DNA of 64,000 bases from Gemmatimonadota bacterium (GTDB taxonomy: Bacteria; Actinomycetota; Actinomycetes; Streptosporangiales; Streptosporangiaceae): assembly GCA_050257395.1 (NCBI GenBank), contig JBLMWU010000214.1, positions 3,606 through 67,605 on the forward strand, given 5' to 3'. Made by a program: the position numbers and the translations under genes. Below, in pieces: positions 5,284 through 23,220 of this stretch (its first letter is position 1; every line of letters starts with the position of its first letter). A model generated the notes under the pieces. It had not been told where the DNA came from. It worked only from the letters and a program-made list of their open reading frames with translations, and made no database searches.

Positions 5284-6421
5284 CTACAGGCTCCGCGTGT
5301 CGGCCACCGCCGAACGCGCACTGCGTGCCGAGTGGGATAGGTGCCGGTGGGTGTGGAACCAGTGTGTTGCCGAGTCACGCCAGGCATGGAGGGAACAGCG
5401 CGCGTGCGGCCCGGCTGGCCTGGACAAGATGCTCACGGGCTGGCGCGCGGAGCACGGCTGGCTGCGCGAGGGGTCGTCTGTCGCGCAGAAGCAGGCGATC
5501 CGCGACTTCGGCAAGAGCCGGGCAAAGGCGCTCAAGGACCGCAAGAACAAGATCCCGGTACCCCAGCGCGCGGGTCTGCCGCAGTTCCGCAAGCGCGACC
5601 GGTCCGCGCCGACGATGAACTACACGAAGCAGGGGTTCTCGCTCCGCCACGGCCGCCTGATTGTCGCTGGCGGGATCTCGCTGCGCGTCGTCTGGTCCCG
5701 CGCGCTGCCGTCGGTGCCGAGTTCGGTTCGCGTCTGCCAGGACTCGCTAGGGCACTGGTATGCATCGTTCGTCGTCCAGGCCGGGCCCGAGCCCCTGCCG
5801 GAAACCGGCAAGGCGATCGGCATCGACTGGGGCGTGACGGACATCGCGATCACCACCAGCGGCGAGCACGACCTCCCGCACCCTGAGTTCGCGAAAAAGT
5901 CCGCCGCGAAGCTGGCGAAATACCAGCGTCAGATGGCCCGCCGCAAGCCGCACAAAGGCAAGCCCGCGTCGGCTGGATACAAGCGCGCCAGGCGTCAGGC
6001 TGCGAAGGTGCACGCCAAGGCCGCCGCCCAGCGGCAGGACACCTCTCGCAAGTGGGCGAAGAAGGTCGTCCGGGACTTCGATCAGGTCGCCGCCGAGGAC
6101 TTCCGCCCGAAGTTCCTGGCGAAGTCCGCGATGGCCCGCAAGGCAGCCGACGCGGCCATCGGGTCGGCCAAGTCAGGCCTGCTGGAGATGGCAGCCAAAC
6201 ACGGCCGGATCGTCCATCTCGTGCACCCAGCCCACACAACCACCGATTGCAGCGCCTGCGGCGCGAGAGCCAAGCAACGCCTGCCGCTGTCGCAGAGAAC
6301 ATACACATGCAGCTCATGCGGCACCGTCCTGCCCAGGGACAAGAACAGCGCCGCCGTGATGCTCACCAGGGCTGGTCTCACCCCTGCTGGTGCTGATCGG
6401 ATAAGACCCCATGCGGCGTAG
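5261..6421 (+). CDS. tnpB: TnpB (IS605 OrfB-family RNA-guided endonuclease), apparently intact
   Basis: 386 aa. RuvC-I IGIDWGV, RuvC-II VAAEDF, zinc finger CSACG...CSSCG and RuvC-III LPRDKNSAAVM are all present. Confidence 0.85.
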   Translation: MVRQVRYTYRLRVSATAERALRAEWDRCRWVWNQCVAESRQAWREQRACGPAGLDKMLTGWRAEHGWLREGSSVAQKQAIRDFGKSRAKALKDRKNKIPVPQRAGLPQFRKRDRSAPTMNYTKQGFSLRHGRLIVAGGISLRVVWSRALPSVPSSVRVCQDSLGHWYASFVVQAGPEPLPETGKAIGIDWGVTDIAITTSGEHDLPHPEFAKKSAAKLAKYQRQMARRKPHKGKPASAGYKRARRQAAKVHAKAAAQRQDTSRKWAKKVVRDFDQVAAEDFRPKFLAKSAMARKAADAAIGSAKSGLLEMAAKHGRIVHLVHPAHTTTDCSACGARAKQRLPLSQRTYTCSSCGTVLPRDKNSAAVMLTRAGLTPAGADRIRPHAA

Positions 6422-6490
6422 CCGCAAGGGGCGCCGTGAGCCAGAAATCCCCGTCATTCACCGCGGGGAGGACGTCAAAGCGAACCCGGT
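6290..6490 (+). ncRNA. Putative omega/right-end RNA region of the TnpB element (3' end of tnpB plus the right-end hairpin)
   Basis: Inference from established TnpB biology: omegaRNA derives from the 3' end of tnpB and the right end. A right-end hairpin is seen at about 6458-6479. No covariance model was run. Confidence 0.25.
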
Positions 6491-8159: not shown

Positions 8160-8690
8160 GTGATGACCGTGCTGAGCCAGGCACCCGGGCACGGGGAACC
8201 AGCCCGGCTGACCGGCCTGCCCGAAGGGCCACCGTGGACGCTTGCCGATGAGCACGTGCTCCTGCTGCGGCAGATCACCTCGCGGGCACGGGACGTGCTG
8301 GCCGCGGCCACGGACGGCCAGTGGCCAGCCGCCGAGCTGGCGTCGCTGGCCGGCTATGCCCGGGCGGAGCTGCTGCGGCAGGCCGCTGAGGAAGAGGCAC
8401 TGCTGTTCCCGGCCAGCCCGCCGCCCATCACCGCCCGGCTCGCCCGGGACCACGTACGGCTGCGGGCTGTCACTGATCTGCTGACCCGGGCGGCTGCCGG
8501 GGAGCAGAGCCTGTCCCCCGGCCAGCTCGCGGTGGCCACCAGGGATTTCGTGGACCAGCTCGAATATCACCTGAGTGCCGAGGAGAAGCTGCTCGCAGCG
8601 GGTCAGGCTCCGCGCAGCGTGCCAGCCATCGCCTCGCTCGCAGCCGGGCAGCTGGCCACGTCAGGACCATCGGCCCGTGCCGGAGCATGA
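8160..8690 (+). CDS. Hemerythrin-like (HHE cation-binding) domain protein
   Basis: Recurrent His/Glu spacing (DEHVLLLRQI, AELLRQAAEEEALLFP, ARDHVRLRAV, DQLEYHLSAEEKLL) is consistent with the hemerythrin HHE fold. Confidence 0.5.
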   Translation: MMTVLSQAPGHGEPARLTGLPEGPPWTLADEHVLLLRQITSRARDVLAAATDGQWPAAELASLAGYARAELLRQAAEEEALLFPASPPPITARLARDHVRLRAVTDLLTRAAAGEQSLSPGQLAVATRDFVDQLEYHLSAEEKLLAAGQAPRSVPAIASLAAGQLATSGPSARAGA

Positions 8691-8741
8691 GTTTCCGGGG
8701 CAGCCTGGCATCGTCAGTGGTGCGCAGCGGGAGGGGTAATC

Positions 8742-9278
8742 ATGGCACCGCACTGCGATTCGATGGACGGCCCGGTCGTCACAGCTGCCCGGCAAGCCCT
8801 GGAGCGCCAGGACGTCAGCATCGTGCTCCCGTTCGTCAGGAAGGACGGCGAGGAGGAGGTAACCCGCGCGTTCGAGGCCGCCGGGAAGGCCCGCCGGCAG
8901 GGGGCTGACGCCCGGGAAGTCGCTGACCTCTACTTCTTCGAGACCGTGGTCCGCGTCCACCGGGCCGGGGAGGGCGCGCCCTATACCGGGCTGAAACCAG
9001 CCGGGCTGGCAGAAGGGCCCGTCATCCCGGCTGCCGAGCTGGGCATCGAGAGCGGCAGCCCGGACCAGCTCAAGGACCTGCTCGCCCGGCATGTCCGGGA
9101 CGAGATTCAGCGCCGGTTCGATCACGTGATGGCGCTGAAACCCGCGGCGGGCCAGGACGTGGAGCACGCACGCGAGTACGTCGAAGCCATGCTCGGGCTG
9201 GAGGTCTGGGCCAGCAGCCTCTATCAGGCGGTCCTGGCGCCCGCGCATGCAGGCCACGGCGGGCACCAGCACAGCTGA
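8742..9278 (+). CDS. Conserved hypothetical protein (N-terminal MAPHCDSMDGPVV, C-terminal His-rich tail HAGHGGHQHS)
   Basis: 178-aa ORF with good protein composition. Possible metal-binding tail. Family not recognised. Confidence 0.5.
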   Translation: MAPHCDSMDGPVVTAARQALERQDVSIVLPFVRKDGEEEVTRAFEAAGKARRQGADAREVADLYFFETVVRVHRAGEGAPYTGLKPAGLAEGPVIPAAELGIESGSPDQLKDLLARHVRDEIQRRFDHVMALKPAAGQDVEHAREYVEAMLGLEVWASSLYQAVLAPAHAGHGGHQHS

Positions 9279-9324
9279 CTGCCCTTCCGCGCGTGGCTGG
9301 CGGCACGGCGCGGCGGCGGATTCC

Positions 9325-10137
9325 CTACGAGTCCCAGCGGCCGGCCAATTCGGCGGTGAGGGCGGGCCAGACCACCGGGTCGTGGCCTGGCACCAGCCGG
9401 TAGCCGCCGGCTGCGGCGAGCTGCTTGAGCTTGCGGATCTGCGCCACGCTCACCTCCGGCGGGGCATCGACCCGGCCGCCGACCGCCACCTCGCGCTCGA
9501 TGTTCTCGGTGAGGTCGGCGGCGTCGAAGGCGAACACGAAGCCGCCGCCGCCCACCGACTCGTCCAGCGACACCACGAAGCTCTGATGCCCGGGCGTGTG
9601 GCCGGCGGTGAGCACGGCGGTCACCCCTGGCGCGATCCCGGTGTCCCCGTCCGCGATGCGCCAGTCGATCCGGGGGTCGTCGAAGTCGACCCGGAAGATC
9701 CCGTCGCGCTCCGGCGCGGGCGGGGCGGACATGCCGAAGTCCAGCTCGGCCCGCTGGATGTGCACCGGCACCCGGCCGGCGAAATGCTTGAGCCCGCCCG
9801 CGTGGTCGTTGTGCAGGTGGCTGACGGCGACCGCGCGGACGTCCGCCAGCGCGATCCCGGCCTCTGCCAGCGCCTCCTCCAGCGGCTCCCCCGGGCCGGG
9901 CAGCACCGGCTGGATCAGCGGGTCGCCGTGGAAACGCGCCCGCAGCGCGGGGTCGCGGATGAGCGCGGTGTTGAACCCGGTGTCCAGCAGCACCCAGCCG
10001 CCGTCGCACTGCAGCAGCACCCCGGGCACCGGCTCGCGCAGCATCTCGGTGCCGGACGCGCCCTCTACCGACACGGACTTCGGGAGGTCCTCCCAGCCCA
10101 GCGTGAGCAGCACGATCCGGCGCACCCCGGTTCCCAT
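9325..10137 (-). CDS. MBL-fold metallo-hydrolase, AiiA-like N-acyl homoserine lactonase family
   Basis: The HLHNDHAGG motif (HxHxDH) plus downstream His/Asp residues (TAGHTPGH, VPGHD) are present. Confidence 0.8.
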   Translation of the reverse strand: MGTGVRRIVLLTLGWEDLPKSVSVEGASGTEMLREPVPGVLLQCDGGWVLLDTGFNTALIRDPALRARFHGDPLIQPVLPGPGEPLEEALAEAGIALADVRAVAVSHLHNDHAGGLKHFAGRVPVHIQRAELDFGMSAPPAPERDGIFRVDFDDPRIDWRIADGDTGIAPGVTAVLTAGHTPGHQSFVVSLDESVGGGGFVFAFDAADLTENIEREVAVGGRVDAPPEVSVAQIRKLKQLAAAGGYRLVPGHDPVVWPALTAELAGRWDS

Positions 10138-10255
10138 GACCCGCCTCCTTCGCGGCCGGCCGCCCCGCCCGGTGCGGGACGGCCGGCGCTGCGCTCCGGT
10201 CTCCAGCGGACCTTAGCGCCTGCCGGAGGGCGCGCAGGGGCTGCGGGAGCCCGGG

Positions 10256-11083
10256 TCAGTTGCTGCTGAGCCAGGTGACGCTGAACTTCCCCCCGCCGCT
10301 CAGGCCGGACACGCTGTCCTTGGCCTGGCCGCTGCTGTTGGTCATGACAATCTTCGTCGGGTGGTAGTGACCGATGTAGTTGCCGTCCACCTTCGCACTG
10401 GTGAAGTGCACCGTCCCGAAGTCGGCCAGCGGGAGCACGCCCAGGGTCGAGGACGGCGCCTCGGCGATCACCTCGGCGGAGGCGTTGCTCGCCCCGGTCA
10501 GGGTGGCCTGGATCGCGTGCCGCCAGCCGCGGGTGGTGTCCGCCAGCACCAGCGTGTAGTGACCGCTGCCGTGGTAGGCGACCGACGCGCTGAAGTGGTC
10601 ACCGGGGCGCACCTTGTTGCTGAAGTTCACCGGGTACGACGGGTACATCTCATACCAGGAGTAGTACTGGGCGCTGCCGCCGGAGCAGTCCACCTCGCTG
10701 CCGGTCTGCTCGACCGTGCTGCTGCCGTAGCCGTCCAGCCCCACCCAGAAACTGGAGTACTCGCTGCCGGTGCTGCCCGAGCACATGCCCTTCGGCTCCA
10801 CCCAGTTCGCCGACACCTTGGTGTAGTGACCCCCGGACGCGGCGTACCCGGACCAGTTGGTGGAACTGACGGCGTGCGCGAGCGGCGCGAAGCCGCTGCT
10901 GCCCGGCCTGATCAGGTGGGCGACCGGCCGGATCAGCCGCAGCAGCCCCGGTTGCCCGGAATGCCGCGCGCCGGGCGCGTGCGCCGCGGCGGGCACCGCG
11001 GCCGCACCCGCGGCGCCGGCGGTGGCGATTAAGCCGGTCAGCAGGCTCACACCAGCGAGGGATAGGCACCATCTGCGTAGCAT
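10256..11083 (-). CDS. Secreted peptidase G1 (eqolisin / 'peptidase A4') family glutamic peptidase, paralog 1
   Basis: Signal peptide MLRRWCLSLAGVSLLTGLIATAGAAGA. NWSGY...FWVGLDGY...VEQTG holds the catalytic Gln and AEVIAEAP the catalytic Glu, matching the scytalidoglutamic peptidase fold. RBS GAGGAG 4 nt before the ATG at 11083. Confidence 0.75.
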   Translation of the reverse strand: MLRRWCLSLAGVSLLTGLIATAGAAGAAAVPAAAHAPGARHSGQPGLLRLIRPVAHLIRPGSSGFAPLAHAVSSTNWSGYAASGGHYTKVSANWVEPKGMCSGSTGSEYSSFWVGLDGYGSSTVEQTGSEVDCSGGSAQYYSWYEMYPSYPVNFSNKVRPGDHFSASVAYHGSGHYTLVLADTTRGWRHAIQATLTGASNASAEVIAEAPSSTLGVLPLADFGTVHFTSAKVDGNYIGHYHPTKIVMTNSSGQAKDSVSGLSGGGKFSVTWLSSN

Positions 11084-11268
11084 GCGGCTCCTCATCGGGA
11101 CGTGCTGATGACGGGCGACGCCGGCGGCGCCTCCCCCTTGCGCCGGGTGATACCTGCCGTCGTGCTGCTGCGTTAGGTCATCGCGGCAGCACGATAGGTG
11201 ATGACGATTATCGGGCATAGCCGGGCAGAGCCGTGGCAGATCTGAAAAGCCCGTCCCGGCCCGGCTCG

Positions 11269-12105
11269 TCAGGTACTGCGCAGCCAGGTGGCGCTGAAGT
11301 TCTGGCCGCCGCTCAGGGCCGACACGGTGTCCTTGGCCCGCCCGGCGCTGTCCACCATGGTGATCTCCGCCGGGCTGGCGTTGCCGATGGGCGACCCGTT
11401 CACCGTGGCAGCGGAGAAGTTCACGGTGCCGAAGTCGGTCAGCGGCAGCACGCCCCCGGAGGAGGAGGGAGCTTCCGCGATCACCTCGGCCGAGGAGTTG
11501 GCGGCCCCGTGCAGGGTCGCGCTGACGATGTGGCTCCAGCCCTGGGTGGCGTCGGTCAGCGTCAGCGTGTAGCTGCCGCCGCCGTTGTAGGTGACCGAGC
11601 CGGTGAAGTGGTCTCCCGGCCGCACCGGGTTGCTGAAGTTCACCGGGTAGGCCGGGTACATCTCATACCAGGAGTAGTACTGGGCCCTGCCACCGGAGCA
11701 GTCCACCTCGCTGCCGCTCTGCTCGACCGTGCTGCTGCTGTAGCCGTCCAGGCCGACCCAGAAGCTCGAATACTGGCTGCCGCTGGAGCAGGTGCCGGTG
11801 GGTTCCACCCAGCTGGCTGAGACCTTGGTGAACGTGCCGCCGGACGCCGCGTACCCGGACCAGTTCGTTGACGTGGCGTTCGTCAGCGGCCGGGCCGCGG
11901 CCGGCCGGGCGGCGCCCGGGGCGGCCGGCCCCACCTGCACGCCGGGGCGTATCAGCCGGGCGGCGGGCCGGACGAGGCCGGCCGTCCCTGGCCTGGCCGG
12001 CCGGGGCGCCGCCGCCGCGGCCGTGGCACAGGCCAGCGAGCTCGCGAGCAGGACAGCGCCGGTCCCCAGCTGAACGCACCTTCTCCATAACATCCGGGCT
12101 CCCAT
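11269..12105 (-). CDS. Secreted peptidase G1 family glutamic peptidase, paralog 2
   Basis: Same motifs (NWSGYAASGG, FWVGLDGY, VEQSG, AEVIAEAPSS) and a signal peptide. Confidence 0.75.
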   Translation of the reverse strand: MGARMLWRRCVQLGTGAVLLASSLACATAAAAAPRPARPGTAGLVRPAARLIRPGVQVGPAAPGAARPAAARPLTNATSTNWSGYAASGGTFTKVSASWVEPTGTCSSGSQYSSFWVGLDGYSSSTVEQSGSEVDCSGGRAQYYSWYEMYPAYPVNFSNPVRPGDHFTGSVTYNGGGSYTLTLTDATQGWSHIVSATLHGAANSSAEVIAEAPSSSGGVLPLTDFGTVNFSAATVNGSPIGNASPAEITMVDSAGRAKDTVSALSGGQNFSATWLRST

Positions 12106-12269
12106 GAGGATGGTCGGGGCGGCGCGGCGCTGCCGCCGCTATGGCCGCCATAAGCGAAGGGTCATCGAGACCGTACGATACGTAATATTAATTGCTAAAC
12201 AATGAACTGGTAAAGCTCTGGTAGATCCCTTAGCTCGCGGCCGTCCCGGAGGGCACGGCAGGCGCCGGG

Positions 12270-13133
12270 TCAGCCGCTGCGCAGCCAGGTAGCGGTGAAA
12301 TTCCGTCCCCGGCGCAGCGGGGACACCTTGTCCTTGGCCTGCCCCGTCTCGTTCACCATGATGATCCGGACCGGGCTGAGCCTGCCGACAGCCGTGCCGT
12401 CCGCCCGCGCGCCGCTGAACCGGGCGGTCCCGAAGTCCGCCAGCGGCAGCACCCCGAGGCCCGACGACGGCGCCTCCGCGATCACCTCGGCCGAGGAGTC
12501 CGCCGCACCGGTCAGCAGCGCGCTGACCGTGCGCCGCCAGCCGCGGCTGATGTCCGCCAGGATCAGCGTGTAGCGGCCGCGGCCCCGGGCGGTGACCGAC
12601 GCGGCGAAGCGGTCACCGGGCCGCACCCGGTTGCGGAAGTAGACCGGGAACGCGGGATACATCTCGTACCAGGCCTCGTAGTGGGCCCTGGTGCCGATGC
12701 AGTCCACCTCGGTTCCGGTCTGCTCGACCGTGCTGCTGCTGTAGCCGTCCAGGCCCACCCAGAAGCTCGAGTACTGGTCGCCGCCGGTGCAGGTGCCATG
12801 CGGCTCCACCCACCTGGCCGACACCCTGGTGAATCTGCGGCCCGCCGCCGCGTAGCCGGACCAGTTGGCGGAGCCCACCACCCGGGGCCGCGGCGGGCCG
12901 GCCGCGGCCCGGCTGGCCGGGCGGCCGCCCGGCGCGCGCGGCCCCCCGGGCTGGATCCCACCCACCTGGCCGCGCGGGGCCGGGCCGGGCCGGCCGGGCG
13001 GGGCCCCGGCCCGCGCCGCGGCAGGCGCGGCGGCCGCCGCGGGCACCAGCACACCCGCGATGAAGCCGGCCCCGGCCACCGGCAGGCAGCAGCGCCGGAC
13101 AGTCATCAGGAACCCACGCTCCGTAATCTTCAT
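12270..13133 (-). CDS. Secreted peptidase G1 family glutamic peptidase, paralog 3 (start may be the internal MTVRR)
   Basis: Same motifs (NWSGYAAAGR, FWVGLDGY, VEQTG, AEVIAEAPSS) and a signal peptide. Confidence 0.7.
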   Translation of the reverse strand: MKITERGFLMTVRRCCLPVAGAGFIAGVLVPAAAAAPAAARAGAPPGRPGPAPRGQVGGIQPGGPRAPGGRPASRAAAGPPRPRVVGSANWSGYAAAGRRFTRVSARWVEPHGTCTGGDQYSSFWVGLDGYSSSTVEQTGTEVDCIGTRAHYEAWYEMYPAFPVYFRNRVRPGDRFAASVTARGRGRYTLILADISRGWRRTVSALLTGAADSSAEVIAEAPSSGLGVLPLADFGTARFSGARADGTAVGRLSPVRIIMVNETGQAKDKVSPLRRGRNFTATWLRSG

Positions 13134-13170: not shown

Positions 13171-13724
13171 TCAGCCGCTGGTGGCTTCCGGCGCGGGGCG
13201 CATCCATCCGGTCTCGCCCGGCTGCCGGGCGCTGGTGCCCTGCCCGGGGACAGCGTCCAGCGCGGTGCCTGCCACGATGGTGTCCGAGATGCTGCGGAGC
13301 AGGGACCGGACGGTCGCCGACGCCGCCCGGTGCAGCACCATCCGGTCGATGCCCGACCCCACGGCGGCCAGCGGCGGCCGGTAAGCGCCGGTGAAGGTCA
13401 GCCGGGTGCGGCCGTCGTCAGCCGGGGTCAGCATCAGGTTCGCGTCCAGCACGGGGAAGAGCCTGCCCATGACCCCGGTGGCCTCCCACCGCAGCGGCAG
13501 GACCATCGAGTCCTCCCGCGGGATCGGGTCCAGCAGGCGCACCCGCACCAGCTTGGAAGCGCCGATCACGTCGCCGAAGGGCCCGACCCGCGCCAGGCCG
13601 ACGAGCCCGTCCGCGTACGCCTGGCCCGAGGCATCCCGCAGCCAGCCGCCGTGAGCGAGCGCCGCCAGACCCGCCCGGGCAGCCGGAAAGCTGACCCGGA
13701 GCATGGTGTCATGGCTCACGAACA
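13171..13724 (-). CDS. Hypothetical protein
   Basis: Protein-like ORF. The 5' extension in the ORF track overlaps the ABC gene, so I trimmed to MFVSHDTM. Confidence 0.4.
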
Positions 13725-13813
13725 TGCAGCCAGTCAGCCACCTGCAAGTCCCGCCCGCCAGGGGACCAAGGTCCCGTACCGGACGGCAATGGTCTCCTGC
13801 CTCCTGGCTGCTG

Positions 13814-16450
13814 TCAGCCGTACTTGCGGCCAGGGCCCTGCCGGTGCAGCCGCCACCAGGCCACGATCGCGAACGCCACGCCGAGCGCCAGCAGCGCACA
13901 CATGTCCAGGGCCCAGGCATGGAGCGTGTGGTTCCACAGCGGGTCGGTGGGGTTGCCGGGCGCCGGGGGCGTCAGCTTGTTCAGGGTCGACGTGGACGCG
14001 GTGGCGGCGAATCCCCATCGCGACGGCGACAGCCAGGACACCTGTTCCAGCCCGGCCTTGCCCGCGATGCTGAACACGCCGCCGGTGAGGATCACCTCCA
14101 CCACCACCAGCACCATCAGCAGCGGCATCGTCTTCTCGGACGTGTTGACCGAGGCGGAGATGACCAGCCCGAGCGCCATCGACACGACCGCCAGCAGGCC
14201 GATCGCCAGGATCAGCTCGACCAGCGGCAGCGCCTTGACCACCGACCCGCTGTGCGGCATCTTGCGGCCGATCAGCCCGATCAGCACCATCACCCCGGCC
14301 TGCAGCCCGCTGATGAACCCGAGCACCGCCAGCTTGGAACCGAGGTAGGCGGCGGGCGACAGCCCGGCTGCCCGCTCCCGGCTGTAGATGGAGCGCTCCT
14401 TGACCAGTTCCCGGACCGAGTTGAAGGCACCGGCGAAGCACGCGCTGATGATCAGGATGAGCAGCAGCGACGTGGCGGCGGGGTTGGTGCCGGTCACCGC
14501 GGCCGCCGCGTGCGCGGCCGCGCTCGGGGCGGCGGATGCGTGGGCGCCGTGCGTGGCGGCCGCGTGCGCGGCGTGCGTGGCGGTGGCGTGCGCCCCGTGG
14601 CTGGCGGCCGCGTGCGCCCCATGAGTCGCCTTGCCCCCGTGCGCCGGGCTGGGTCCGGGGGACGGGCCGTGCCGTGCGCCGGCTGGCACCGGCCCGGGTG
14701 CCAGCCCGTTCTTATCGGGCAGGACGAGGATCACCCCGCCGAGCACGACCGGCGCGCCGGCCAGCAGGCCGAGGAACACCCGGTCGGACGAGATCACCGC
14801 CAGGTACCGCCGGCACAAGGTGCTGAACTGGGAGAGCTTGTTCTTGGACGACGGCGGCGGGGGCGGCGTGCCCCGCTGCGCCTGGCCTGCCGCCCGGCCT
14901 TCCATGGCCGCCGCGACGTACTGGGTGTACCAGCGTGACTGCCGGTACTCCGCCTGCCAGTCCCGGCTGGGCTCGTTGTCGAAGGCCTGGAAGACCTCGG
15001 CCCAGCCCGGCTTGTTGAAGTGCTTGAGGCCCTCGCTGGGCGGGCCGAAGTAGGCGATCTTCCCGCCGGGCACCAGCACCAGCAGCCGGTCACAGATGTC
15101 GAGGTTGGCGACGCTGTGGGTGACCACGATGACGGTGCGCCCGTCGTGGGCCAGGCCCGCCATCATCTCCATGACCGACTTGTCCAGGCCGGGGTCCAGG
15201 CCGGAGGTCGGCTCGTCGAGGAACAGCAGCGACGGCTTGGTCATCAGCTCCAGTGCCACGTTGACCCGCTTCTGCTGGCCGCCGGACAGCCGGTCGGTGC
15301 GGGTCTCGGCGTGCGCCTTCAGCGAGAGCTCCTCCAGCACCTCGTCCACCCGGTGGTAGCGCTCGGCCTTGCTGGTGTCCTTGGGGAAGCGGAGCTCGGC
15401 GGCGTAGCGCAGGGCGCGGCGGGCGGTCAGCTGGGTGTGCAGGATGTTCTCCTGCGGCACCAGGCCGATCCGGTGCCGCAGCTCGGCGTAGTGGGTGTAC
15501 AGGTCGCGGTTGTCGTACAGGACCGACCCGTCGGTGGCCGGCCGCATCCCGGTCAGCGCGCCCAGCAGGGTGGACTTGCCCGCGCCGCTGGGGCCGATGA
15601 TGCCCAGCAGGCAGCGCTCGCCCAGCGGGAAGCTCACGTGGTCCAGCAGCACCTTGCCGCTGGGCAGCCGCACCGACAGGTCCCTGGCCGCCAGGGACAC
15701 GTCGCCGGTGTCGATGAACTCCTGCAGCTCCTGGCCGACCAGATGGAAGGTCGACGAGCCGACACCGACGATGTCGCCTTCGGACAGCGGCGCGGCGCTG
15801 ATGCGCTGGCCGTTGACGAACGTGCCGTTGTAGCTGTCCAGGTCGACGATCTGGTACATGCCGCCGAGGTTCCGCAGCTCCGCGTGGTGCCGCGAGACAC
15901 CGAGGTCGTTGACCACGATGTCGTTGTCCGGCGACCGGCCGATGCGCAGCACCTTGGCGGGCAGCGGGCGCACCACGCTGGGCTCACGCGGCGGCGCCAG
16001 CGACACCGAGGGCGGCCGGAGCGCACCGCCGGGCGGGGCGGCGGCGCCGTCCCCGCCCATCGGGCTCATGCCGCCGGCCGGGCTCACCGCGATCTGCGTC
16101 GGCGGCCGGGCCGGCTTCCCGGCCCCGGTGACAGTGCAGGTCAGCACCGGCCCGTCAGCCGGATGGCCCAGCCGGACCAGGCACTCCCCGCTGATCTCCA
16201 TGCGGTTCACCCGCTGGGTGCCGGCGTAGGTGCCGTTGGTGCTGCCATTGTCGGTAAGGACCCACCGGCCGTCTTCGAGCCGGAGGAAGGCGTGCTGCCA
16301 CGACACCCGGGTGTCGTCCAGCACGATGTCAGCGTCCGGATCGCGGCCGATCACGTACGAAGGGCCAGCGGCCAGGCTTCGGTCAGATCCCTGGGAACGG
16401 ACCACCAGCGGTGGTGCGGACCCCCCCGAAAGGGACTTCTCGGTCTCCAC
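13814..16450 (-). CDS. FHA-FHA-ABC transporter (two N-terminal forkhead-associated domains, ABC ATPase, C-terminal ABC-2 permease); Rv1747-like architecture
   Basis: FHA 1 is YVIGRDPDADIVLDDTRVSWQHAFL...NGSTNGTY. FHA 2 is LRIGRSPDNDIVVNDLGVSRHHAEL...SYNGTFVNG. Walker A GPSGAGKST and signature LSGGQQKR are present. Six C-terminal TM helices follow a His/Ala-repeat linker. Confidence 0.85.
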   Translation of the reverse strand: METEKSLSGGSAPPLVVRSQGSDRSLAAGPSYVIGRDPDADIVLDDTRVSWQHAFLRLEDGRWVLTDNGSTNGTYAGTQRVNRMEISGECLVRLGHPADGPVLTCTVTGAGKPARPPTQIAVSPAGGMSPMGGDGAAAPPGGALRPPSVSLAPPREPSVVRPLPAKVLRIGRSPDNDIVVNDLGVSRHHAELRNLGGMYQIVDLDSYNGTFVNGQRISAAPLSEGDIVGVGSSTFHLVGQELQEFIDTGDVSLAARDLSVRLPSGKVLLDHVSFPLGERCLLGIIGPSGAGKSTLLGALTGMRPATDGSVLYDNRDLYTHYAELRHRIGLVPQENILHTQLTARRALRYAAELRFPKDTSKAERYHRVDEVLEELSLKAHAETRTDRLSGGQQKRVNVALELMTKPSLLFLDEPTSGLDPGLDKSVMEMMAGLAHDGRTVIVVTHSVANLDICDRLLVLVPGGKIAYFGPPSEGLKHFNKPGWAEVFQAFDNEPSRDWQAEYRQSRWYTQYVAAAMEGRAAGQAQRGTPPPPPSSKNKLSQFSTLCRRYLAVISSDRVFLGLLAGAPVVLGGVILVLPDKNGLAPGPVPAGARHGPSPGPSPAHGGKATHGAHAAASHGAHATATHAAHAAATHGAHASAAPSAAAHAAAAVTGTNPAATSLLLILIISACFAGAFNSVRELVKERSIYSRERAAGLSPAAYLGSKLAVLGFISGLQAGVMVLIGLIGRKMPHSGSVVKALPLVELILAIGLLAVVSMALGLVISASVNTSEKTMPLLMVLVVVEVILTGGVFSIAGKAGLEQVSWLSPSRWGFAATASTSTLNKLTPPAPGNPTDPLWNHTLHAWALDMCALLALGVAFAIVAWWRLHRQGPGRKYG

Positions 16451-16723
16451 GCGCCAACTGTAGAGGGATTCAAGTCAAAGTAAAATGGATTGGGCCGCAT
16501 CAGCCCGCCGCTGTCCAGCGGTGTCTCCGCCCCGGCCGGCAGCGCGGCCGGAAATCCGCCCCCGCCGCGCCTGGCAGCAGGCCTGCCTCGCCCCCATACT
16601 GGTATGGTCCCGGGCAATCCGGCTCGCTCACGGCGCGCTGCCCGGACCCCGCTGCGCCTCTTGTGCCGGCCCGGGTCACGGCAGCGCTGGCGCCGGGGAA
16701 GGGGCTGAGCACGGGGAGGCGCA

Positions 16724-19462
16724 GTGGGTGACGAGAGTCCCACGTCGGCAGCAGGCTTCGGCAAGGGGTCACGCGTCGCCGGCTACCGCATCGAGGAGGA
16801 GCTCGGCCACGGCGGCATGGCCGTCGTCTACCTCGCCCACGACGCCCGGCTGGACCGGCGGGTCGCGCTCAAGGTCCTGGCCCCCGACCTGGCCCAGGAC
16901 CAGGCGTTCCGGCAGCGCTTCATCCGGGAGTCACGGGCCGCGGCCGCCGTGGACCATCCGCACATCATCCCGATCTTCGAGGCCGGCGAGGCGAACGGGG
17001 TCCTGTTCATCGCGATGCGCCTGGTCCGGGGCGGCGACGTGCAGACGCTCATCGACCGCCACGGCGGCCTGCCCGCCGCGCGGGTCTGCCAGCTCGTGGC
17101 CCAGGTGTCGTCGGCCCTGGACGCCGCGCACGCCCACGGCCTGGTGCACCGGGACGTCAAGCCCGCCAACATGCTGCTGGACTCGGCCGCCGGCGGCGAC
17201 GAGCCCGACCACGTCTACCTGTCCGACTTCGGGCTGAGCAAGCGCGCGCTCAGCAGCACCGAGCTGACCTCGGCGGGCCAGTTCCTGGGCACCCTGAACT
17301 ATGTCGCGCCCGAGCAGATCGAGGGCCGCCCGGTCGACGGGCGCACCGACCTGTATGCGCTGGGCTGCTCCGTGTACTCCATGCTCTGCGGCGCGCCGCC
17401 GTTCAAGCAGGACGACTCGATGGCGATCATGTGGGCGCAGCTCTCGACGGCGCCGCCGCCGCTCACCCCCCGCCGGCCGGATCTGCCGGTGGCGGTGGAC
17501 ACCGTGATGGCCAAGGCGCTGGCCAAGGCGCCGGCAGACCGCTACCAGACGTGCCGGGAGTTCGCCAGCGCCCTGCGGCGGGCCTGTGGCCTCGGCCCGG
17601 CCGAGGCCGCCCGGCAGCCGAAGGCCCCGGAAGTCCGCGCCCCTACCCAGGCCGTCCGGCCCGCTGACCTGGCGGCGGCTGCTTCCGCCGGCCCGGGAGC
17701 CGCCCCGGCGCCCGCTGCCGGCCCCGCCGCCGCAGCTCCCGCCGCCGCGGCCCCCGCCGCCGGCCGGCCAGCCGCCGCGGGCCAGCCCGCCACCGGCCCG
17801 ATGGCCGCCTCGGGCCAGCCCGCCGCCGGTGCGGCTCCCGCCGCCGCCGGCCTGCGCCCGGCCGGCCAGGCGGCGCCGGATTCCGGCGGTCAGCCCGTGA
17901 CCAACCCGGTGCCGGTCACGGGTTCCCGGGGAGCCCCCGCCAGCGCATCCGCCGCCAAGGCGGCCACCGCCCAGCCGGGCAACGCCCAGCCGGGCGCCGC
18001 CGCCCCGGCAGCGAGCGGGCCGGCCCCCACCGCCGCGGCCCCCGCGCTGCCCGGCGGCCCGTCACCCGCCCTGTCCGGGGCGCCGACGTCGCCGTCACGC
18101 CCGCTGCCGCCGCCGGCGGACGCGGGGGCGCTGGCCGCGGCGGCGGCCCCAGCCACCCAGTACGTGCGGGCCTCGTCCGCGGGCCCGGTGCTGGACCGGC
18201 CGCGCGGCCCCGGCGGGACCGTGCTGGAGGGCTACACCCGGGGCGGCGGCCCGCCCCGTTCCCGCCGCCGCTCGCGGGCGCTCCTGCTGGTGGCCGGCAT
18301 CGTGGTGGTGGCGGGCCTGGGCGGCGGCTACTTCCTGCTGCACGGCTCCGGCAAGGGCGGCCCCAAGCAGCACCACGCCGCCGCGCGGGTGCTCGCCGCC
18401 CCGGGCTGCACCACCCAGGTGGCCAAGGCGGCACCGGTCGCGCACACCCCGAGCCAGCTGGTCAGCATCGGCGGCCGGCCCTTCGACGTGGCGACCGCGC
18501 CGGGTGGTTTCGCGTTCGTGTCCATCGGCAGCGGCGTCATGGTGATGCGGACCACCGCCACGCCACCGGCCATCCTGTGGACCAGCCAGCTCACCCACGC
18601 CCAGGGCGAGGCGCTGACGCCCGACCGGCAGTACCTGGTGGTGGCGGACGGCAGCGGGATCGACGTGTTCCGGGTGCCGGACCTGGAACAGGGCCCGGCC
18701 ACCCCGGTCGGCTCGCTGGCCAGCCCCGGGGACAAGCACGCGGTCGAGGTGGCGCTCACCCCGGACGGCCGGTACGCGTTCGTCACGTTCCAGAACACCG
18801 GCCACGTCGGCGTGTTCAACCTCCGGCAGGCACTCAGCTCCGGCTTCGGGCCCGCCGCCCTGGTCGGCACCATCGCGGTGGGCGCCCAGCCGATCGGCGT
18901 CACCACCTCCCCGGACGGCCGGTACGCCTACGTGACCAGCCGGGTGCCCGGGGCCCCGGCCAGCGCCAACGGCGGCGTGGTGAACGTGATCGACGTCGGC
19001 AAGGCCGTGCACCACCCGGCGTCCTCGGTGGTCAAAACGGTGGCGGCAGGCTGCCAGCCGGCCCGGGTCATCGCGTCGCCGGACGGCCAGCACCTATGGG
19101 TGAGCGCGGTCGGCTCGAACTCGCTGCTGGCCTACTCCGCGCCCAAGCTGATCAGCGACCCCCGGCACGCGCTGCTGGCCACGGTGGCGGTGGGGTCCCA
19201 GCCGCTCGGGCTGGCCTTCGTGAACCACGGCGCCCGCATCGTGGTGGCGGACTCCAACCGCGACCAGCCGGCCGGCGGCGCCTCGAACCTGGCCGTGGTG
19301 GACGCCGCCAAGGTGCTGGCCGGCCGGCCCGGCCTGATCGGCTACCTGCCGGCCGGGACGACCCCGCGGCAGTTCTCGCTGGCGCCGAACGGCCGCCGGC
19401 TGCTGGTCACAAACACGGATTCCGGGCAACTCCAGGTAATCAACGTCACTCATCTACCCTGA
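16724..19462 (+). CDS. Hanks-type Ser/Thr protein kinase with Ala/Pro-rich linker, one TM helix and extracellular YVTN-type beta-propeller
   Basis: GTG start. Kinase motifs GHGGMAVVY, ALK, HRDVKPANML, DFGLSK and YVAPEQ are present. TM helix ALLLVAGIVVVAGLGGGYFLL. The C-terminal repeats TSPDGRYAYVT / ASPDGQHLWVS / LAPNGRRLLVT are typical of 7-bladed propellers. Confidence 0.85.
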   Translation: MGDESPTSAAGFGKGSRVAGYRIEEELGHGGMAVVYLAHDARLDRRVALKVLAPDLAQDQAFRQRFIRESRAAAAVDHPHIIPIFEAGEANGVLFIAMRLVRGGDVQTLIDRHGGLPAARVCQLVAQVSSALDAAHAHGLVHRDVKPANMLLDSAAGGDEPDHVYLSDFGLSKRALSSTELTSAGQFLGTLNYVAPEQIEGRPVDGRTDLYALGCSVYSMLCGAPPFKQDDSMAIMWAQLSTAPPPLTPRRPDLPVAVDTVMAKALAKAPADRYQTCREFASALRRACGLGPAEAARQPKAPEVRAPTQAVRPADLAAAASAGPGAAPAPAAGPAAAAPAAAAPAAGRPAAAGQPATGPMAASGQPAAGAAPAAAGLRPAGQAAPDSGGQPVTNPVPVTGSRGAPASASAAKAATAQPGNAQPGAAAPAASGPAPTAAAPALPGGPSPALSGAPTSPSRPLPPPADAGALAAAAAPATQYVRASSAGPVLDRPRGPGGTVLEGYTRGGGPPRSRRRSRALLLVAGIVVVAGLGGGYFLLHGSGKGGPKQHHAAARVLAAPGCTTQVAKAAPVAHTPSQLVSIGGRPFDVATAPGGFAFVSIGSGVMVMRTTATPPAILWTSQLTHAQGEALTPDRQYLVVADGSGIDVFRVPDLEQGPATPVGSLASPGDKHAVEVALTPDGRYAFVTFQNTGHVGVFNLRQALSSGFGPAALVGTIAVGAQPIGVTTSPDGRYAYVTSRVPGAPASANGGVVNVIDVGKAVHHPASSVVKTVAAGCQPARVIASPDGQHLWVSAVGSNSLLAYSAPKLISDPRHALLATVAVGSQPLGLAFVNHGARIVVADSNRDQPAGGASNLAVVDAAKVLAGRPGLIGYLPAGTTPRQFSLAPNGRRLLVTNTDSGQLQVINVTHLP

Positions 19463-19555
19463 GCGTGTCCCAGGCCGAGCACGAGGAGTCCCTTTGCTCT
19501 CAGCGATGATCACGCAGGCGCCGCGCGCCGGGACCCGCATGCAGGCGGCAGTGCG

Positions 19556-20293
19556 GTGAGCGGCGACCGGACGCGCCCGATGCCGGCGCCGGGCCAGTAC
19601 CCGGTGTATCAGCCGGCCGCGGTGAGACGGCGCAGCCGCTGGCCCTTCGTCGTCCTCGGCGTCGTCGTGCTGCTGCTCCTGCTGCTGGTCGGGGCGGACC
19701 GGGCGGCGGCCGCGTACGCGGGCAGCCAGGCCGCCCAGCAGATGAAGACGCAGGGGTTCCCGGGGAACCCGGACGTGACGATGGAGGGTTTCCCGTTCCT
19801 CACCCAGGTGGCGGCCCGGAACCTGCAGGACGTGCACGTCACCGCGAACAACGTGCAGGAGGGGCCGGTCAGCCTGAGCCTGAGCGGCGATGCGTACGGG
19901 GTGCGGCTCAATCCCGGCTACCAGAGCGGCACGATCACCCGGGTCAGGGGCACCGTCCTGATCGGCTTCGGCAGCGTGGCCGGCATCGCGCGCAACGCGG
20001 GCGCGTCGGGCGTGACGGCGTCGGCCGACGGCCCGAACCGGATCAAGTTCAAGGTGGACATGGCGGTCTTCAGCACCACCGTGATCGCGTCGGTCACCAA
20101 GACCGGCCCGAGCACCGTCCAGTTCCACGTCATCTCGGCGGGCGGGCTGCCCGCGTCGCTGCTGGGCTCGTTCGGCAACATGACCTTCACCATCCCGAAG
20201 CTGCCCTACGGCCTGACGGTGCAGAGCCTGAGCGTCACCAGCCAGGGCATCGTCGGCCACCTGACCGCCCGCAACATCCCGTTCAGCCAGTAA
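19556..20293 (+). CDS. DUF2993 (LmeA-like) membrane-anchored protein
   Basis: N-terminal TM FVVLGVVVLLLLLLVG followed by a VTMEGFPFLTQVAARNLQDVHVTA-type segment characteristic of DUF2993/LmeA. Confidence 0.6.
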   Translation: MSGDRTRPMPAPGQYPVYQPAAVRRRSRWPFVVLGVVVLLLLLLVGADRAAAAYAGSQAAQQMKTQGFPGNPDVTMEGFPFLTQVAARNLQDVHVTANNVQEGPVSLSLSGDAYGVRLNPGYQSGTITRVRGTVLIGFGSVAGIARNAGASGVTASADGPNRIKFKVDMAVFSTTVIASVTKTGPSTVQFHVISAGGLPASLLGSFGNMTFTIPKLPYGLTVQSLSVTSQGIVGHLTARNIPFSQ

Positions 20294-20318
20294 CAGCGGC
20301 CAGCGAGGTGACCCCCGG

Positions 20319-21458
20319 GTGAGCCTGCAGGCCCCGCTGTGGCGGGCGATCGCGGTGTTCCGGTTCGCCTCGCTGGCCTATGCGGCGGTGCTGCTGGCCG
20401 GGAGCCGGGCGGATTACACGCATCCGGCCTGGGCGTGGGGCGTGCTGGCGGGGATGGCCGGCTGGACGGTGCTCACCACCGTCGCCTACGCCCGGCCCGC
20501 CCGGCGCGGCCGCCTGCTGCTGGCCGCGGACCTGGCGGTGACCGCGGCGGCGCTGCTGTCCACCGCGGCGCTGCAGGACCCGCGCAGCATCTCGGCGGGG
20601 GTCATGCCGGTGACCGCCACCTGGATGGCGGGACCGGTGCTGGCCTGGGCGGTCGCCTGGGGCATGGGGCCGGGCGCGGCGGCCGCGATCGTCCTGGCCG
20701 GCTGCGACCTGGCGCTGCGCCACCGGCTGCTGACCGGCCCGCTGTGGAACCGGGCCGTGAACGGATCGGTCCTGCTGCTGCTGGCCGGGGTGGTGGTGGG
20801 CTACATGTCGGCGCTGGCCGGCCGGGCCGAGCGGGCGCTGCAGCGGGCGACCGAGATTGAGGCCGCCAGCCGGGAACGCGAGCGGCTGGCCCGCGGCATC
20901 CACGACTCGGTGCTGCAGGTGCTGGCGCTGGTGCAGCGCCGCGGCGCCGAGGTCGGCGGGGAGGCGGCCGAGATCGGCCGCCTGGCCGGGGAGCAGGAGG
21001 CGGCGCTGCGGGCGCTGATCGCCGGGGAGGACGGCCCGCTGCCCCCGGCCGGCGAGCAGGACCTGCGGGCCCTGCTGTCCCAGCAGGCCACCGCCGACGT
21101 GTCGGTGGTGACCCCCGCGGAGCCGGTGCTGCTCACCGACGCCGCGGCCCGGGAGACGGCGGCCGCCGTGCGGGCGGCCCTGGACAACGTCCGCCGGCAC
21201 GCCGGCCAGGCGGCCCGCGCCTGGGTGCTCGTGGACGACGAGGGCGCCGAGGTGAGCGTGACCATCCGGGACAACGGCCAGGGCATGCCACCGGGCCGGC
21301 TCGCCGAGGCGGCGGCCGAGGGCAGGCTCGGCGTCAGCCAGTCGATCTGCGGCCGGCTGCGCGACCTCGGCGGGTCGGCCGACATCCACTCCGGTCCCGG
21401 CGAAGGCACCGAGGTCCGCCTGCGAGTCCCCCGCGACCGTTCTAGGCTGCCCGCATGA
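20319..21458 (+). CDS. Sensor histidine kinase (HisKA_3 type, membrane-embedded sensor)
   Basis: Four to five TM helices with no large extracytoplasmic loop. H-box ERERLARGIHDSVLQ. ATPase region with DNGQGMPPGR. Confidence 0.8.
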   Translation: MSLQAPLWRAIAVFRFASLAYAAVLLAGSRADYTHPAWAWGVLAGMAGWTVLTTVAYARPARRGRLLLAADLAVTAAALLSTAALQDPRSISAGVMPVTATWMAGPVLAWAVAWGMGPGAAAAIVLAGCDLALRHRLLTGPLWNRAVNGSVLLLLAGVVVGYMSALAGRAERALQRATEIEAASRERERLARGIHDSVLQVLALVQRRGAEVGGEAAEIGRLAGEQEAALRALIAGEDGPLPPAGEQDLRALLSQQATADVSVVTPAEPVLLTDAAARETAAAVRAALDNVRRHAGQAARAWVLVDDEGAEVSVTIRDNGQGMPPGRLAEAAAEGRLGVSQSICGRLRDLGGSADIHSGPGEGTEVRLRVPRDRSRLPA

Positions 21459-22162
21459 CAGGCCGGCCGAGCGAAACGGGCGCGGAGCGCCCAGGCGAGG
21501 GCCAGAAAACAAGAGTGATGGTGGTGGACGACCATCCGATGTGGCGCGACGCCGTGGCCCGCGACCTGTCCGAGGCGGGGTTCGAGGTGGCGGCTGCGGT
21601 GGGTGACGGCGCCCAGGCGCTGCGGGTGGCCGGCGCGGCCCGGCCGGACGTGGTGGTGCTCGACCTCCAGCTGCCGGACATGTCCGGGGTGGAGGTGACC
21701 CGCGGCCTGCTCGCCGCCCGGCCGGCCCCCCGGGTGCTGATCCTGTCGGCCAGCGCGGAGCACCCGGACGTGCTCGCCGCGGTCAAGGCGGGCGCGTCCG
21801 GTTACCTGATCAAGTCCGCGAGCCGCCCGGAGTTCCTGGCGGCCGTGCAGCGGACGGCCGGCGGGGATGCGGTCTTCTCCCCCGGCCTGGCCGGGCTGGT
21901 GCTCGGCGAGTTCCGGCGGCTCGCCAGCACGGCGGCGCCGGACACGCCCCGGCTGACCGACCGGGAAGCCGAGATCCTGCGCATGGTCGGGACCGGGCTG
22001 TCCTACAAGCAGATCGCCGAGCGGCTGGTGCTCTCCCACCGCACCGTGCAGAACCACGTCCAGAACACGCTGAGCAAGCTGCACCTGCACAACCGGGTGG
22101 AACTGGTCCGCTACGCGATCGAGCACGGGCTTGATGCCGGGCCCGGCGGGGGCGTGCCCTGA
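21455..22162 (+). CDS. NarL/LuxR-family response regulator
   Basis: Receiver domain VMVVDDHPMWRD...DLQLPDMSG. LuxR HTH LTDREAEILRMVGTGLSYKQIAERLVLSHRTVQNHV. ATGA overlap with the kinase stop. Confidence 0.85.
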   Translation: MTGRPSETGAERPGEGQKTRVMVVDDHPMWRDAVARDLSEAGFEVAAAVGDGAQALRVAGAARPDVVVLDLQLPDMSGVEVTRGLLAARPAPRVLILSASAEHPDVLAAVKAGASGYLIKSASRPEFLAAVQRTAGGDAVFSPGLAGLVLGEFRRLASTAAPDTPRLTDREAEILRMVGTGLSYKQIAERLVLSHRTVQNHVQNTLSKLHLHNRVELVRYAIEHGLDAGPGGGVP

Positions 22163-22227: not shown

Positions 22228-22935
22228 TCAGGCGCGGGACAGCAGCGGCAGCACGCGGCGCTGGAACGTGGTGTTGATCACCAGCGCGGAGGCGCCGTAG
22301 AACGCCAGCGCGGCGCTGAGGATCAGGAAGTAGCCGCCGATGTTGCCGATGACCGCCGGGCCGCCCACGTTCGGGACCGCTGCCAGCCCGAACCCGGGAA
22401 CCAGCGCGAGCAGGATGGCGACGAACTCCAGGTTGACCGGCAGCGCCGCGACCGCCAGCACCAGCGAGATGTAGGCGAAGCAGAACAGCTCGATGCCGAG
22501 CAGCAGCTTGGTGCTGGCGACGGCCGGGAACAGCCCGCTGGCCTGGAACAGGTACCAGGTGGCGATCAGGGTGTTGTTCGCGCCGTAAGCGCAGAACGCG
22601 GTGCCCGCGAACGTGTTGCCCTTGCGCAGCGCCACCAGGCCGCCGATGAACTGGGCGATCCCGGCGAACACCAGCACCGGGGCCAGCGCCGCCAGCACGC
22701 CGGTCTGCAGCGGGATGAACCCGGCCAGCGGGATGGCGATCAGCAGGGTGCCGACCGCGAAGCCGAACAGGCTGAACCCGCCCGGCTCGCCCACCGACGC
22801 CTCTGACCGCTCCTGGAGCTCAAAGACCTGGTCCGCGGGCATTCCGCTGACCACCGGTCCCGCCTTGGTCCACCGTTCCAGCGGCCGCGAGCGGCCGTCG
22901 GCGGGGCGGGGATTGACCTGCGGCTGAGTGCTCAT
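22228..22935 (-). CDS. GPR1/FUN34/YaaH (SatP-type) acetate/succinate transporter
   Basis: Six TM segments; FAGTAFCAYGANNTLIATWYL is a family hallmark. The start is set at the ATG with RBS AAAGGAG (complement 22933-22935). Confidence 0.7.
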   Translation of the reverse strand: MSTQPQVNPRPADGRSRPLERWTKAGPVVSGMPADQVFELQERSEASVGEPGGFSLFGFAVGTLLIAIPLAGFIPLQTGVLAALAPVLVFAGIAQFIGGLVALRKGNTFAGTAFCAYGANNTLIATWYLFQASGLFPAVASTKLLLGIELFCFAYISLVLAVAALPVNLEFVAILLALVPGFGLAAVPNVGGPAVIGNIGGYFLILSAALAFYGASALVINTTFQRRVLPLLSRA

Positions 22936-23220
22936 TCTTCGCTCCTTTCCGATGGCGAACGAGCTGGCGCGGCGCCGCCCTGTCACCGCACCCGCTGCTG
23001 GCCCCGGAACCAGAAAACTATCGCGCCACGATATTTCTGCCCTGTACCGGGAATGGCGCGGCCCAAACACCCGCAGGTCAGCCCCGTCCATGGGCCGCCC
23101 GGCCGGGCGGGCCGCCCGCCCCGGCTGCCGCGGGGGCCATGTTTGGGCCCGCTTTCGCGGGTAGGTCGGATCACGATGTATCCGCGGCCGGGGCACCGAC
23201 CCAGCTCAGGAGGTGGATGG

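Follow-up and report, generated by a model that had tools for sequence, protein, structure and literature searches.

A divergent FHA-ABC exporter/DUF2993 gene pair in Streptosporangiales-type actinobacteria, a candidate phosphothreonine-gated lipid export system

When an exporter resembling mycobacterial Rv1747, a receptor Ser/Thr kinase, a protein of the LmeA (DUF2993) family and a two-component system are encoded side by side, which of these genes belong together, and what might they do jointly? The question is raised by a stretch of 64,000 nucleotides (hereafter the window; positions 3,606 to 67,605 of contig JBLMWU010000214.1) whose GC content is about 73% and whose proteins have their closest relatives in metagenome genomes labelled 'Streptosporangiaceae bacterium'. 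An initial annotation had described positions 13814-22162 as an island of five genes devoted to envelope-glycolipid export and sensing. The five genes and their domains were all recovered, by Pfam and as reading frames of high GC content at third codon positions (GC3 0.93-0.98), with exact coordinates. The unit conserved across genomes is nonetheless not a five-gene island. It is the divergent pair made up of the gene for an ATP-binding cassette (ABC) protein with two FHA domains, referred to below as FHA-ABC, and the LmeA-like gene. The genes concerned are the following.

13814..16450, minus strand: FHA-FHA-ABC half transporter, 878 aa (Pfam, PDB matches, motifs, AlphaFold2 model with Foldseek)
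16451..16723, unstranded: divergent intergenic region between the ABC and kinase genes, 273 bp (read directly)
16724..19462, plus strand: receptor Ser/Thr kinase, 912 aa (Pfam, NCBIfam, PDB, repeats)
19556..20293, plus strand: LmeA-like (DUF2993) protein, 245 aa (PF11209)
20319-21458, plus strand: MacS-family histidine kinase (NF047322, DUF5931, HATPase_c)
21455-22162, plus strand: NarL-type response regulator (Response_reg, GerE), overlapping the histidine kinase gene by 4 bp

Conservation of the gene neighbourhood

Two samples of related loci bear on the neighbourhood. One was anchored on the exporter and consists of seven ABC homologs (56-85% identity) on long contigs; at all seven, the kinase and LmeA-like genes lie across the divergent gap while the other flanks are unrelated. 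The other was a genome scan, with one genome per species, in which an alignment of LmeA-like proteins served as query and the window proteins were mapped onto 80 loci. The scan patterns were derived from loci carrying all three genes (the trio), so the scan samples a single LmeA-like subfamily; the exporter-anchored sample is free of that bias. Close LmeA-like relatives (33-55% identical) occupy 61 of the 80 loci, of which 58 extend far enough upstream to be informative. A divergent FHA-ABC gene is present at 56 of these 58, which makes the link between exporter and LmeA-like protein stronger than the initial annotation could have shown. The kinase gene lies between the two at about 25 of these loci (gap 2.6-3.6 kb) and missing from about 30 (gap 0.09-1.8 kb), with the shortest gaps, 91-99 bp, in Actinomadura nitritigenes. 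Named carriers include this species, A. oligospora, A. montaniterrae, Spirillospora, Nocardiopsis and Trebonia. The remaining 19 loci, all but two from Streptomyces, encode LmeA-like proteins of only 27-32% identity, and an FHA-ABC neighbour was found at none of the 18 informative loci among them. That over 50 genomes of Streptosporangiales carry the pair suggests that both proteins work in one envelope-lipid export pathway.

Individual loci display variations on this arrangement. The ABC and LmeA-like genes of L016 are separated by a frame of 63 codons (9460-9651, plus strand) that encodes the first ~50 kinase residues, glycine loop included, and then stops; this remnant shows that the L016 lineage lost the kinase by deletion and kept the pair. 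A weaker kinase remnant is seen at L013. In Trebonia sp. (L057), two tandem LmeA-like genes (8521-9720 and 9800-10645, plus strand) diverge from the FHA-ABC gene; the first product has a long Pro/Gln-rich cytoplasmic tail and the second an Asp in place of the Thr that is conserved in the tails of other members. The trio kinase of L090 (5348-6841, minus strand) is only 497 aa long and gives no propeller match, which makes the sensor domain of these kinases exchangeable.

The exporter, its kinase and the LmeA-like partner

Within the three proteins, the following parts can be delimited.

16130-16420, minus strand: FHA-1 of the ABC protein, about aa 11-107 (Pfam, PDB 6CCD)
aa 108-158, minus strand: inter-FHA linker of the ABC protein, modelled as disordered (predicted local distance difference test score, pLDDT, <50)
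16097..16099, minus strand: codon of T118 in this linker (ARPPT118QIAV), candidate phospho-acceptor in a conserved motif
15731-15976, minus strand: FHA-2 of the ABC protein, about aa 159-240 (Pfam, PDB 6CAH)
15011-15691, minus strand: nucleotide-binding domain (NBD), about aa 254-480 (Pfam ABC_tran)
13841-14848, minus strand: ABC-2 type transmembrane domain (TMD), about aa 535-870 (Pfam ABC2_membrane)
14486..14719, minus strand: His/Ala-rich loop between transmembrane (TM) helices 1 and 2 of the ABC protein, aa 578-655, predicted outside (pLDDT <50)
Kinase aa 21-285: kinase domain of the 912-aa protein
Kinase aa 286-516: Ala/Pro-rich juxtamembrane region with T308 (APTQAV, codon 17645-17647) and T478 (PATQYV)
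Kinase aa ~517-540: TM helix
18461-19459, plus strand: predicted seven-repeat propeller of YVTN/lactonase type, about kinase aa 580-912
19571-19573, plus strand: codon of T6 in the cytoplasmic tail of the LmeA-like protein (MSGDRT6RPMP)

Pfam assigns two FHA domains (E 1.7e-39), ABC_tran and ABC2_membrane to the ABC protein. The Rv1747-like succession of FHA, FHA, NBD and ABC-2 permease that had been claimed for it is borne out by the PDB matches, since each FHA domain finds its own Rv1747 counterpart first: aa 11-107 match 6CCD (FHA-1, 2.5e-18) and aa 159-233 match 6CAH (FHA-2, 3.8e-15). The canonical phosphothreonine (pThr) site of FHA domains is formed by GR, SRxH and SxNG (PMC8339232). These residues are present in both domains, and the ligand positions of GR, SxxH and NG, namely G35, R36, S50, H53, N72 and G73 in FHA-1 and G171, R172, S186, H189, N208 and G209 in FHA-2, do not vary across 38 aligned homologs. 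The NBD retains its Walker A and Walker B motifs, its signature and its H-loop, and among solved structures it is closest to ABCA and ABCG transporters of lipids or sterols. A Foldseek search with the AlphaFold2 model (mean pLDDT 66, the linker and one loop being disordered at pLDDT <50) returned ABCG25, ABCG2, ABCG1 and ABCG5/G8 as best matches. By its FHA matches, intact NBD motifs, NBD relatives and Foldseek matches, the protein is a half transporter of ABCG-like NBD-TMD build that bears a regulatory head of the Rv1747 type.

The TM1-TM2 loop has features of its own. It is built of THGAHAAA-like units, with 11 His in 78 aa, and is partly encoded by a 24-bp tandem repeat (3.6 copies, 14531-14617). 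In homologs the loop is hypervariable: its length lies anywhere between 12 and 149 aa, and it contains as many as 17 His. Such a His/Ala-rich outside segment may bind metal or sense pH.

In the kinase (Pfam Pkinase, 2.4e-46; start codon GTG, with GGGAGG 4 nt upstream), the Hanks motifs VALK, HRD, DFG and APE are all present. The resemblance to PknF that had been proposed is upheld by the best solved match of its kinase domain, 7NAA (225 bits, followed by PknE with 217 and PknB with 192), which is the PknF catalytic domain (PMC8339232). The kinase domain is followed by a 225-aa Ala/Pro-rich stretch, an Arg cluster, one TM helix and seven repeats of the type xPxGvxxxPDGxxxyV, at aa 593, 633, 680, 730, 786, 834 and 889. 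The best solved match of the repeat region is the YVTN propeller 1L0Q (9e-14), Pfam finds a Lactonase-type propeller at aa 672-847, and the YVTN repeat model TIGR02276 is passed marginally (28.5 bits, cut-off 27.85). The seven-bladed YVTN-type sensor initially ascribed to this divergent kinase thus agrees with what the repeats predict, a seven-repeat propeller of YVTN/lactonase type. Receptor Ser/Thr kinases with an outside beta-propeller include PknD, where it is of the NHL type, and AfsK, where it is made of PQQ repeats. Like them, the window kinase combines a Hanks kinase in the cytoplasm with a single TM helix and a propeller on the outside, but its propeller is of a different type and that of the L090 kinase is missing.

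A second kinase of the same subfamily is encoded at 57110-59026 (plus strand), with a TM helix at about aa 436-458 followed by an outside region of about 180 aa without a family match. The two kinase domains had been thought nearly identical, and the paralogs to compete for one FHA acceptor. The domains are in fact 56% identical over 335 aa, below the 63-91% seen with orthologous kinases at related loci, and the idea of competition, which was based on the mistaken identity, is left unsupported.

Rv1747 and PknF remain the nearest known system. Beyond the FHA-FHA-NBD-ABC2 order, the closeness of each FHA domain to its Rv1747 counterpart and the retention of GR/SxxH/NG, the likeness extends to a disordered linker with a candidate Thr site and to an adjacent kinase gene whose catalytic domain is closest to PknF. 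The kinase gene is divergent here, however, and in the same operon in mycobacteria. The window kinase is extended by an Ala/Pro linker (225 aa) and a propeller of seven repeats (about 330 aa), whereas PknF has a small extracellular region and no propeller. The linker between the FHA domains is about 50 aa long with one Thr, compared with about 100 aa and two mapped sites in Rv1747 (PMC3138270, PMC8339232). Finally, the LmeA-like gene is linked here and not in mycobacteria (M. simulans L088; PMC6791001), and identities amount to 35-52%.

As to the LmeA-like protein, the initial annotation was right about the family and not about the role it implied. The protein passes the Pfam LmeA model PF11209 (73.5 bits) and reaches only 31.3 bits on the NCBIfam LmeA model NF038021 (cut-off 325), with a match limited to aa 34-105. 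It is therefore a DUF2993 family member and not an LmeA equivalog, and control of mannan chain length cannot be transferred to it. A 29-aa cytoplasmic tail, an Arg cluster and an N-terminal TM anchor precede an outside domain that is rich in beta structure and TULIP-like, a fold in agreement with published work on the family (PMC6791001, PMC7643837). LmeA itself (MSMEG_5785/Rv0817c), a phospholipid-binding DUF2993 protein needed for mannan elongation, has the same PF11209 domain, anchor, outside domain and TULIP-like fold (PMC6791001, PMC7643837); what sets the window protein apart, besides the failed equivalog model, is the tail with its conserved Thr motif and the linked ABC exporter. Rv1748 was considered as a possible DUF2993 protein and ruled out, the members in M. 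tuberculosis being Rv0817c, Rv0479c and Rv3243c (PMC6791001).

Threonine motifs and a model for gated lipid export

All three proteins carry threonines in conserved settings on the cytoplasmic side. The inter-FHA linker does contain a motif of the TQ/TP class that had been anticipated for it, a TQ at T118 (ARPPT118QIAV), and T118 is the sole internal Thr of the linker. Counted in the window protein and 120 homologs, from an alignment of N-termini only, the Thr position of the motif R-P-[AP]-T-[VQA]-[ILV]-A is occupied by Thr in 83 of 121 sequences and by Ala in 14. By analogy with T150 and T208 of Rv1747 (PMC3138270), T118 may be regarded as a candidate phospho-acceptor. The nearly universal S/T158 (R-x-P-[ST]-V-[IV]-R) was considered as a phospho-site and set aside, because the AlphaFold2 model places it at the start of the first FHA-2 strand and its role is thus probably structural. 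That the linker motif might track the presence of the kinase was also entertained: the strict motif occurs only in kinase-linked ABC proteins, but these belong to one subclade, and kinase-less ABC clades have other linker Thr motifs, so that the motif is unusable as evidence of co-evolution.

A similar motif, RPxT[QE]-hydrophobic-A, lies about 15-20 aa past the kinase domain in kinase orthologs. Examples are VRAPT308QAVRPADLAAA in the window, SRPPTEAVRPADLAAA in L001, and RPATQIAAP and RPPTEIAMPV elsewhere. The strict form P[PA]T[QE][IVLA][AV] is present in 14 of 28 kinases (0.1 expected from shuffles), a count that leaves out the window's own variant, APTQAV. In the tail of the LmeA-like protein, M1, T6, P10 and P20 are the sole invariant positions ahead of the Arg cluster in a six-sequence alignment. 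Among 101 database homologs that have an N-terminal tail, 90 carry a Thr within the first 12 residues, followed by L, M or F at +3 in 53 and by Pro at +4 in 49. The tail motif T-x-x-[LMF]-P is found at the start codon at 27 of 66 loci, with and without an adjacent kinase gene, and fits the preference for a hydrophobic +3 residue of mycobacterial FHA domains and Rv1747 sites (PMC3138270). Streptomyces-type LmeA-like proteins have almost no cytoplasmic tail.

The reading that we favor, with a probability of roughly 0.55, is that of an Rv1747/PknF-like, pThr-gated ABCG-type exporter coupled to a membrane-anchored TULIP-type lipid acceptor, the kinase being optional. The domain layout, the invariant ligand residues, the folds, the linkage of the genes and the Thr motifs belong to what was observed; that these motifs provide the switch, the phosphorylation events, the contact between the ABC and LmeA-like proteins and the nature of the substrate are what we infer. 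On this reading, the core is an envelope module of three genes in Streptosporangiales-type actinobacteria, in which the ABCG-like half transporter would form a homodimer whose two pThr-binding FHA domains are joined by the disordered linker. The propeller of the PknF-like receptor kinase presumably senses an envelope or environmental ligand. The kinase would then autophosphorylate on T179/T182 of its activation loop and on juxtamembrane T308 (TQAV), and would in turn phosphorylate T118 of the ABC linker (TQIA) and possibly T6 of the LmeA-like tail (TRPM). Binding of these phosphothreonines by the FHA domains would switch the exporter on, as in Rv1747, and might tether the LmeA-like protein to it. 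The exporter would move a membrane lipid or glycolipid outward and hand it over to the LmeA-like domain. Mannosides anchored on phosphatidylinositol (PIMs) are the obvious substrate candidate; that the substrate would be a lipid is suggested by the fold classes, by the reduced PIM content of the Rv1747 mutant (PMC5549992) and by the lipid binding reported for LmeA (PMC7643837). As an analogy only, this would resemble LptB2FG-LptC/A and LolCDE-LolA, where an ATP-driven extractor works with a lipid-binding acceptor anchored beside it. Those systems share no homology with the present one, no outer membrane is expected in monoderm actinomycetes, and the hand-over is here a proposal.

It is a bolder and rather doubtful step to suppose that the FHA-ABC and LmeA-like proteins constitute a dedicated lipid export and transfer machine with pThr-controlled assembly, in which the kinase phosphorylates T6 and the ABC linker and the FHA domains clamp the acceptor to the exporter.

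Several points weigh against the proposed lipid exporter. In a pairwise comparison, identity to the Rv1747-like protein of M. simulans is only 41% (FHA-1), 49% (FHA-2), 52% (NBD) and 35% (TMD). That protein was the stand-in for full-length Rv1747 (its FHA-1 is 83% identical to that of Rv1747), and its gene contains a run of unknown bases, read as X, and was called as two pieces of 159 and 719 aa. The position of T118 is an Ala in P0002, the closest long-contig relative, and the +3 residue of T118 is itself an Ala, which makes a weak FHA ligand. The strict kinase and tail motifs occur in only about half of the orthologs, and shared descent inflates their counts. With about half of the loci lacking it, the kinase is dispensable, and since all linked genomes belong to one order, the linkage may in part be inherited synteny. 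In mycobacteria, the M. simulans transporter (L088) adjoins no DUF2993 gene, and loss of LmeA in M. smegmatis leaves PIM levels unchanged (PMC7643837). Next to this M. simulans FHA-ABC gene (8609-11709, plus strand) are folD, YcaO/TfuA and a small gene that encodes an FHA domain alone; neither pknF nor a DUF2993 gene is among its neighbours.

A kinase-regulated exporter of non-lipid cargo, for example a drug, a peptide or a polysaccharide precursor, with the LmeA-like protein as a neighbour only by virtue of a shared envelope theme or promoter region, seems unlikely. Homologs are annotated as 'ABC-type multidrug transport system', partial NCBIfam matches include the DrrA and pigment-permease subfamilies (all far under their cut-offs), and the substrate of Rv1747 itself is unproven (PMC8339232). 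However, the pair holds together over a range of 57% to 95% NBD identity in spite of changing flanks, the LmeA-like partner has a fold of lipid-binding type, and the closest solved relatives of the NBD and of the overall fold are the ABCA and ABCG lipid/sterol transporters.

We consider it improbable that the linkage is devoid of function, that is, synteny inherited within one order, with the Thr motifs arising by chance in low-complexity segments rich in Pro, Ala and Thr. All linked loci do come from Streptosporangiales-type genomes, the scan patterns sampled one subfamily, LmeA-like and NBD identities show only a weak correlation from locus to locus (Spearman 0.22, p 0.10), and many orthologs lack the Thr motifs. 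Yet the pair or trio stays together where flanks differ, the pair was retained at L016 where the kinase was deleted, T6 and P10 are invariant in an otherwise variable tail, and the frequency of the kinase motif far exceeds that in shuffled sequences.

If the bolder reading, a dedicated machine with pThr-controlled assembly, is correct, Rv1747 and the DUF2993 proteins (LmeA, Rv0479c, Rv3243c) would share one PIM/lipoglycan trafficking pathway in mycobacteria as well, even with their genes unlinked there. The system bears on three questions of mycobacterial envelope biology: what the virulence-linked exporter Rv1747 transports, what LmeA and other DUF2993 proteins do at the molecular level, and which protein translocates PIMs and lipoglycans (PMC5549992). 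The conserved pairing in non-pathogenic actinomycetes is independent comparative evidence that the two families work jointly. It also brings in tractable organisms such as Actinomadura and suggests mutations at defined positions, namely T118, S50 and S186 of the ABC protein, kinase T308, and T6 of the LmeA-like protein. The sensing kinase is an optional addition whose sensor domain can be swapped. The parts are of known kinds; what is new is that they are paired in a conserved way, that the kinase is optional and that Thr motifs are shared. A literature search of limited reach returned no paper linking Rv1747-type exporters with DUF2993 proteins, and a search for the LmeA-linked clade together with Rv1747 gave nothing relevant.

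The two-component system and other neighbours

The histidine kinase passes the MacS equivalog model NF047322 (447 bits, cut-off 300), while its HisKA_3 match is sub-threshold (19.7 bits, cut-off 24). Like MacRS of Streptomyces (SCO2121/SCO2120), it is paired with an overlapping gene for a NarL-type regulator; what sets it apart is its place beside the exporter module, which is lineage-specific. MacS and MacR genes occur near the module in three lineages only, represented by the window, L003/L004 and L008. In the genome scan they are next to it at 1 of 54 loci with enough downstream DNA, and none is found beside the trio in L001, L002, L005, L007, L090 or L091. In L001, whose ABC protein is 85% identical to that of the window, a GPR1/FUN34/YaaH-family gene (5760-6479) directly follows the LmeA-like gene. 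The window has a gene of this family at 22228-23196 (minus strand), just past MacR, and MacS/MacR are the sole insertion or deletion between the two loci in that region. A search with TGAGTACnnGTACTCA, which we take to be the MacR box consensus, gave one match, with 3 mismatches, inside the ABC frame, and 36 of 100 shuffles equal it; by the same consensus, no MacR-box-like site was found in the intergenic regions of the module. MacRS is thus an occasional neighbour and not a component of the module: of the conserved neighbourhood first envisaged, the exporter/LmeA-like part held and the two-component part did not. A five-gene island in which His-Asp signals from MacRS and pThr signals from the kinase and FHA domains come together at the exporter and its LmeA-like partner is improbable: MacS does start only 25 bp past the LmeA-like stop on the same strand, a spacing that would permit read-through transcription, the system does recur near the trio in L003/L004 and L008, and MacR does control morphogenetic genes for membrane proteins and lipoproteins in Streptomyces (PMC9739842), but 53 of the 54 genome loci and the six trio loci named above lack it, the same yaaH-family gene takes its place in L001, and the only box match is a poor one within a coding frame.

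In the 273-bp region between the ABC and kinase genes, a promoter scan found no sigma-70-like hexamers, as expected for an actinobacterium of 73% GC, and only short GC-rich palindromes were seen in the intergenic regions of the module. An open reading frame without family match (13171-13920, minus strand) overlaps the 3' end of the ABC gene; its position is occupied in L001 by a 201-aa gene without Pfam matches, which is not so at more distant loci. Further downstream of the ABC gene lie three tandem paralogous genes of the Peptidase_A4 (eqolisin-type) family (10256-13133, minus strand), a triplet that L001 also has downstream of its ABC gene.

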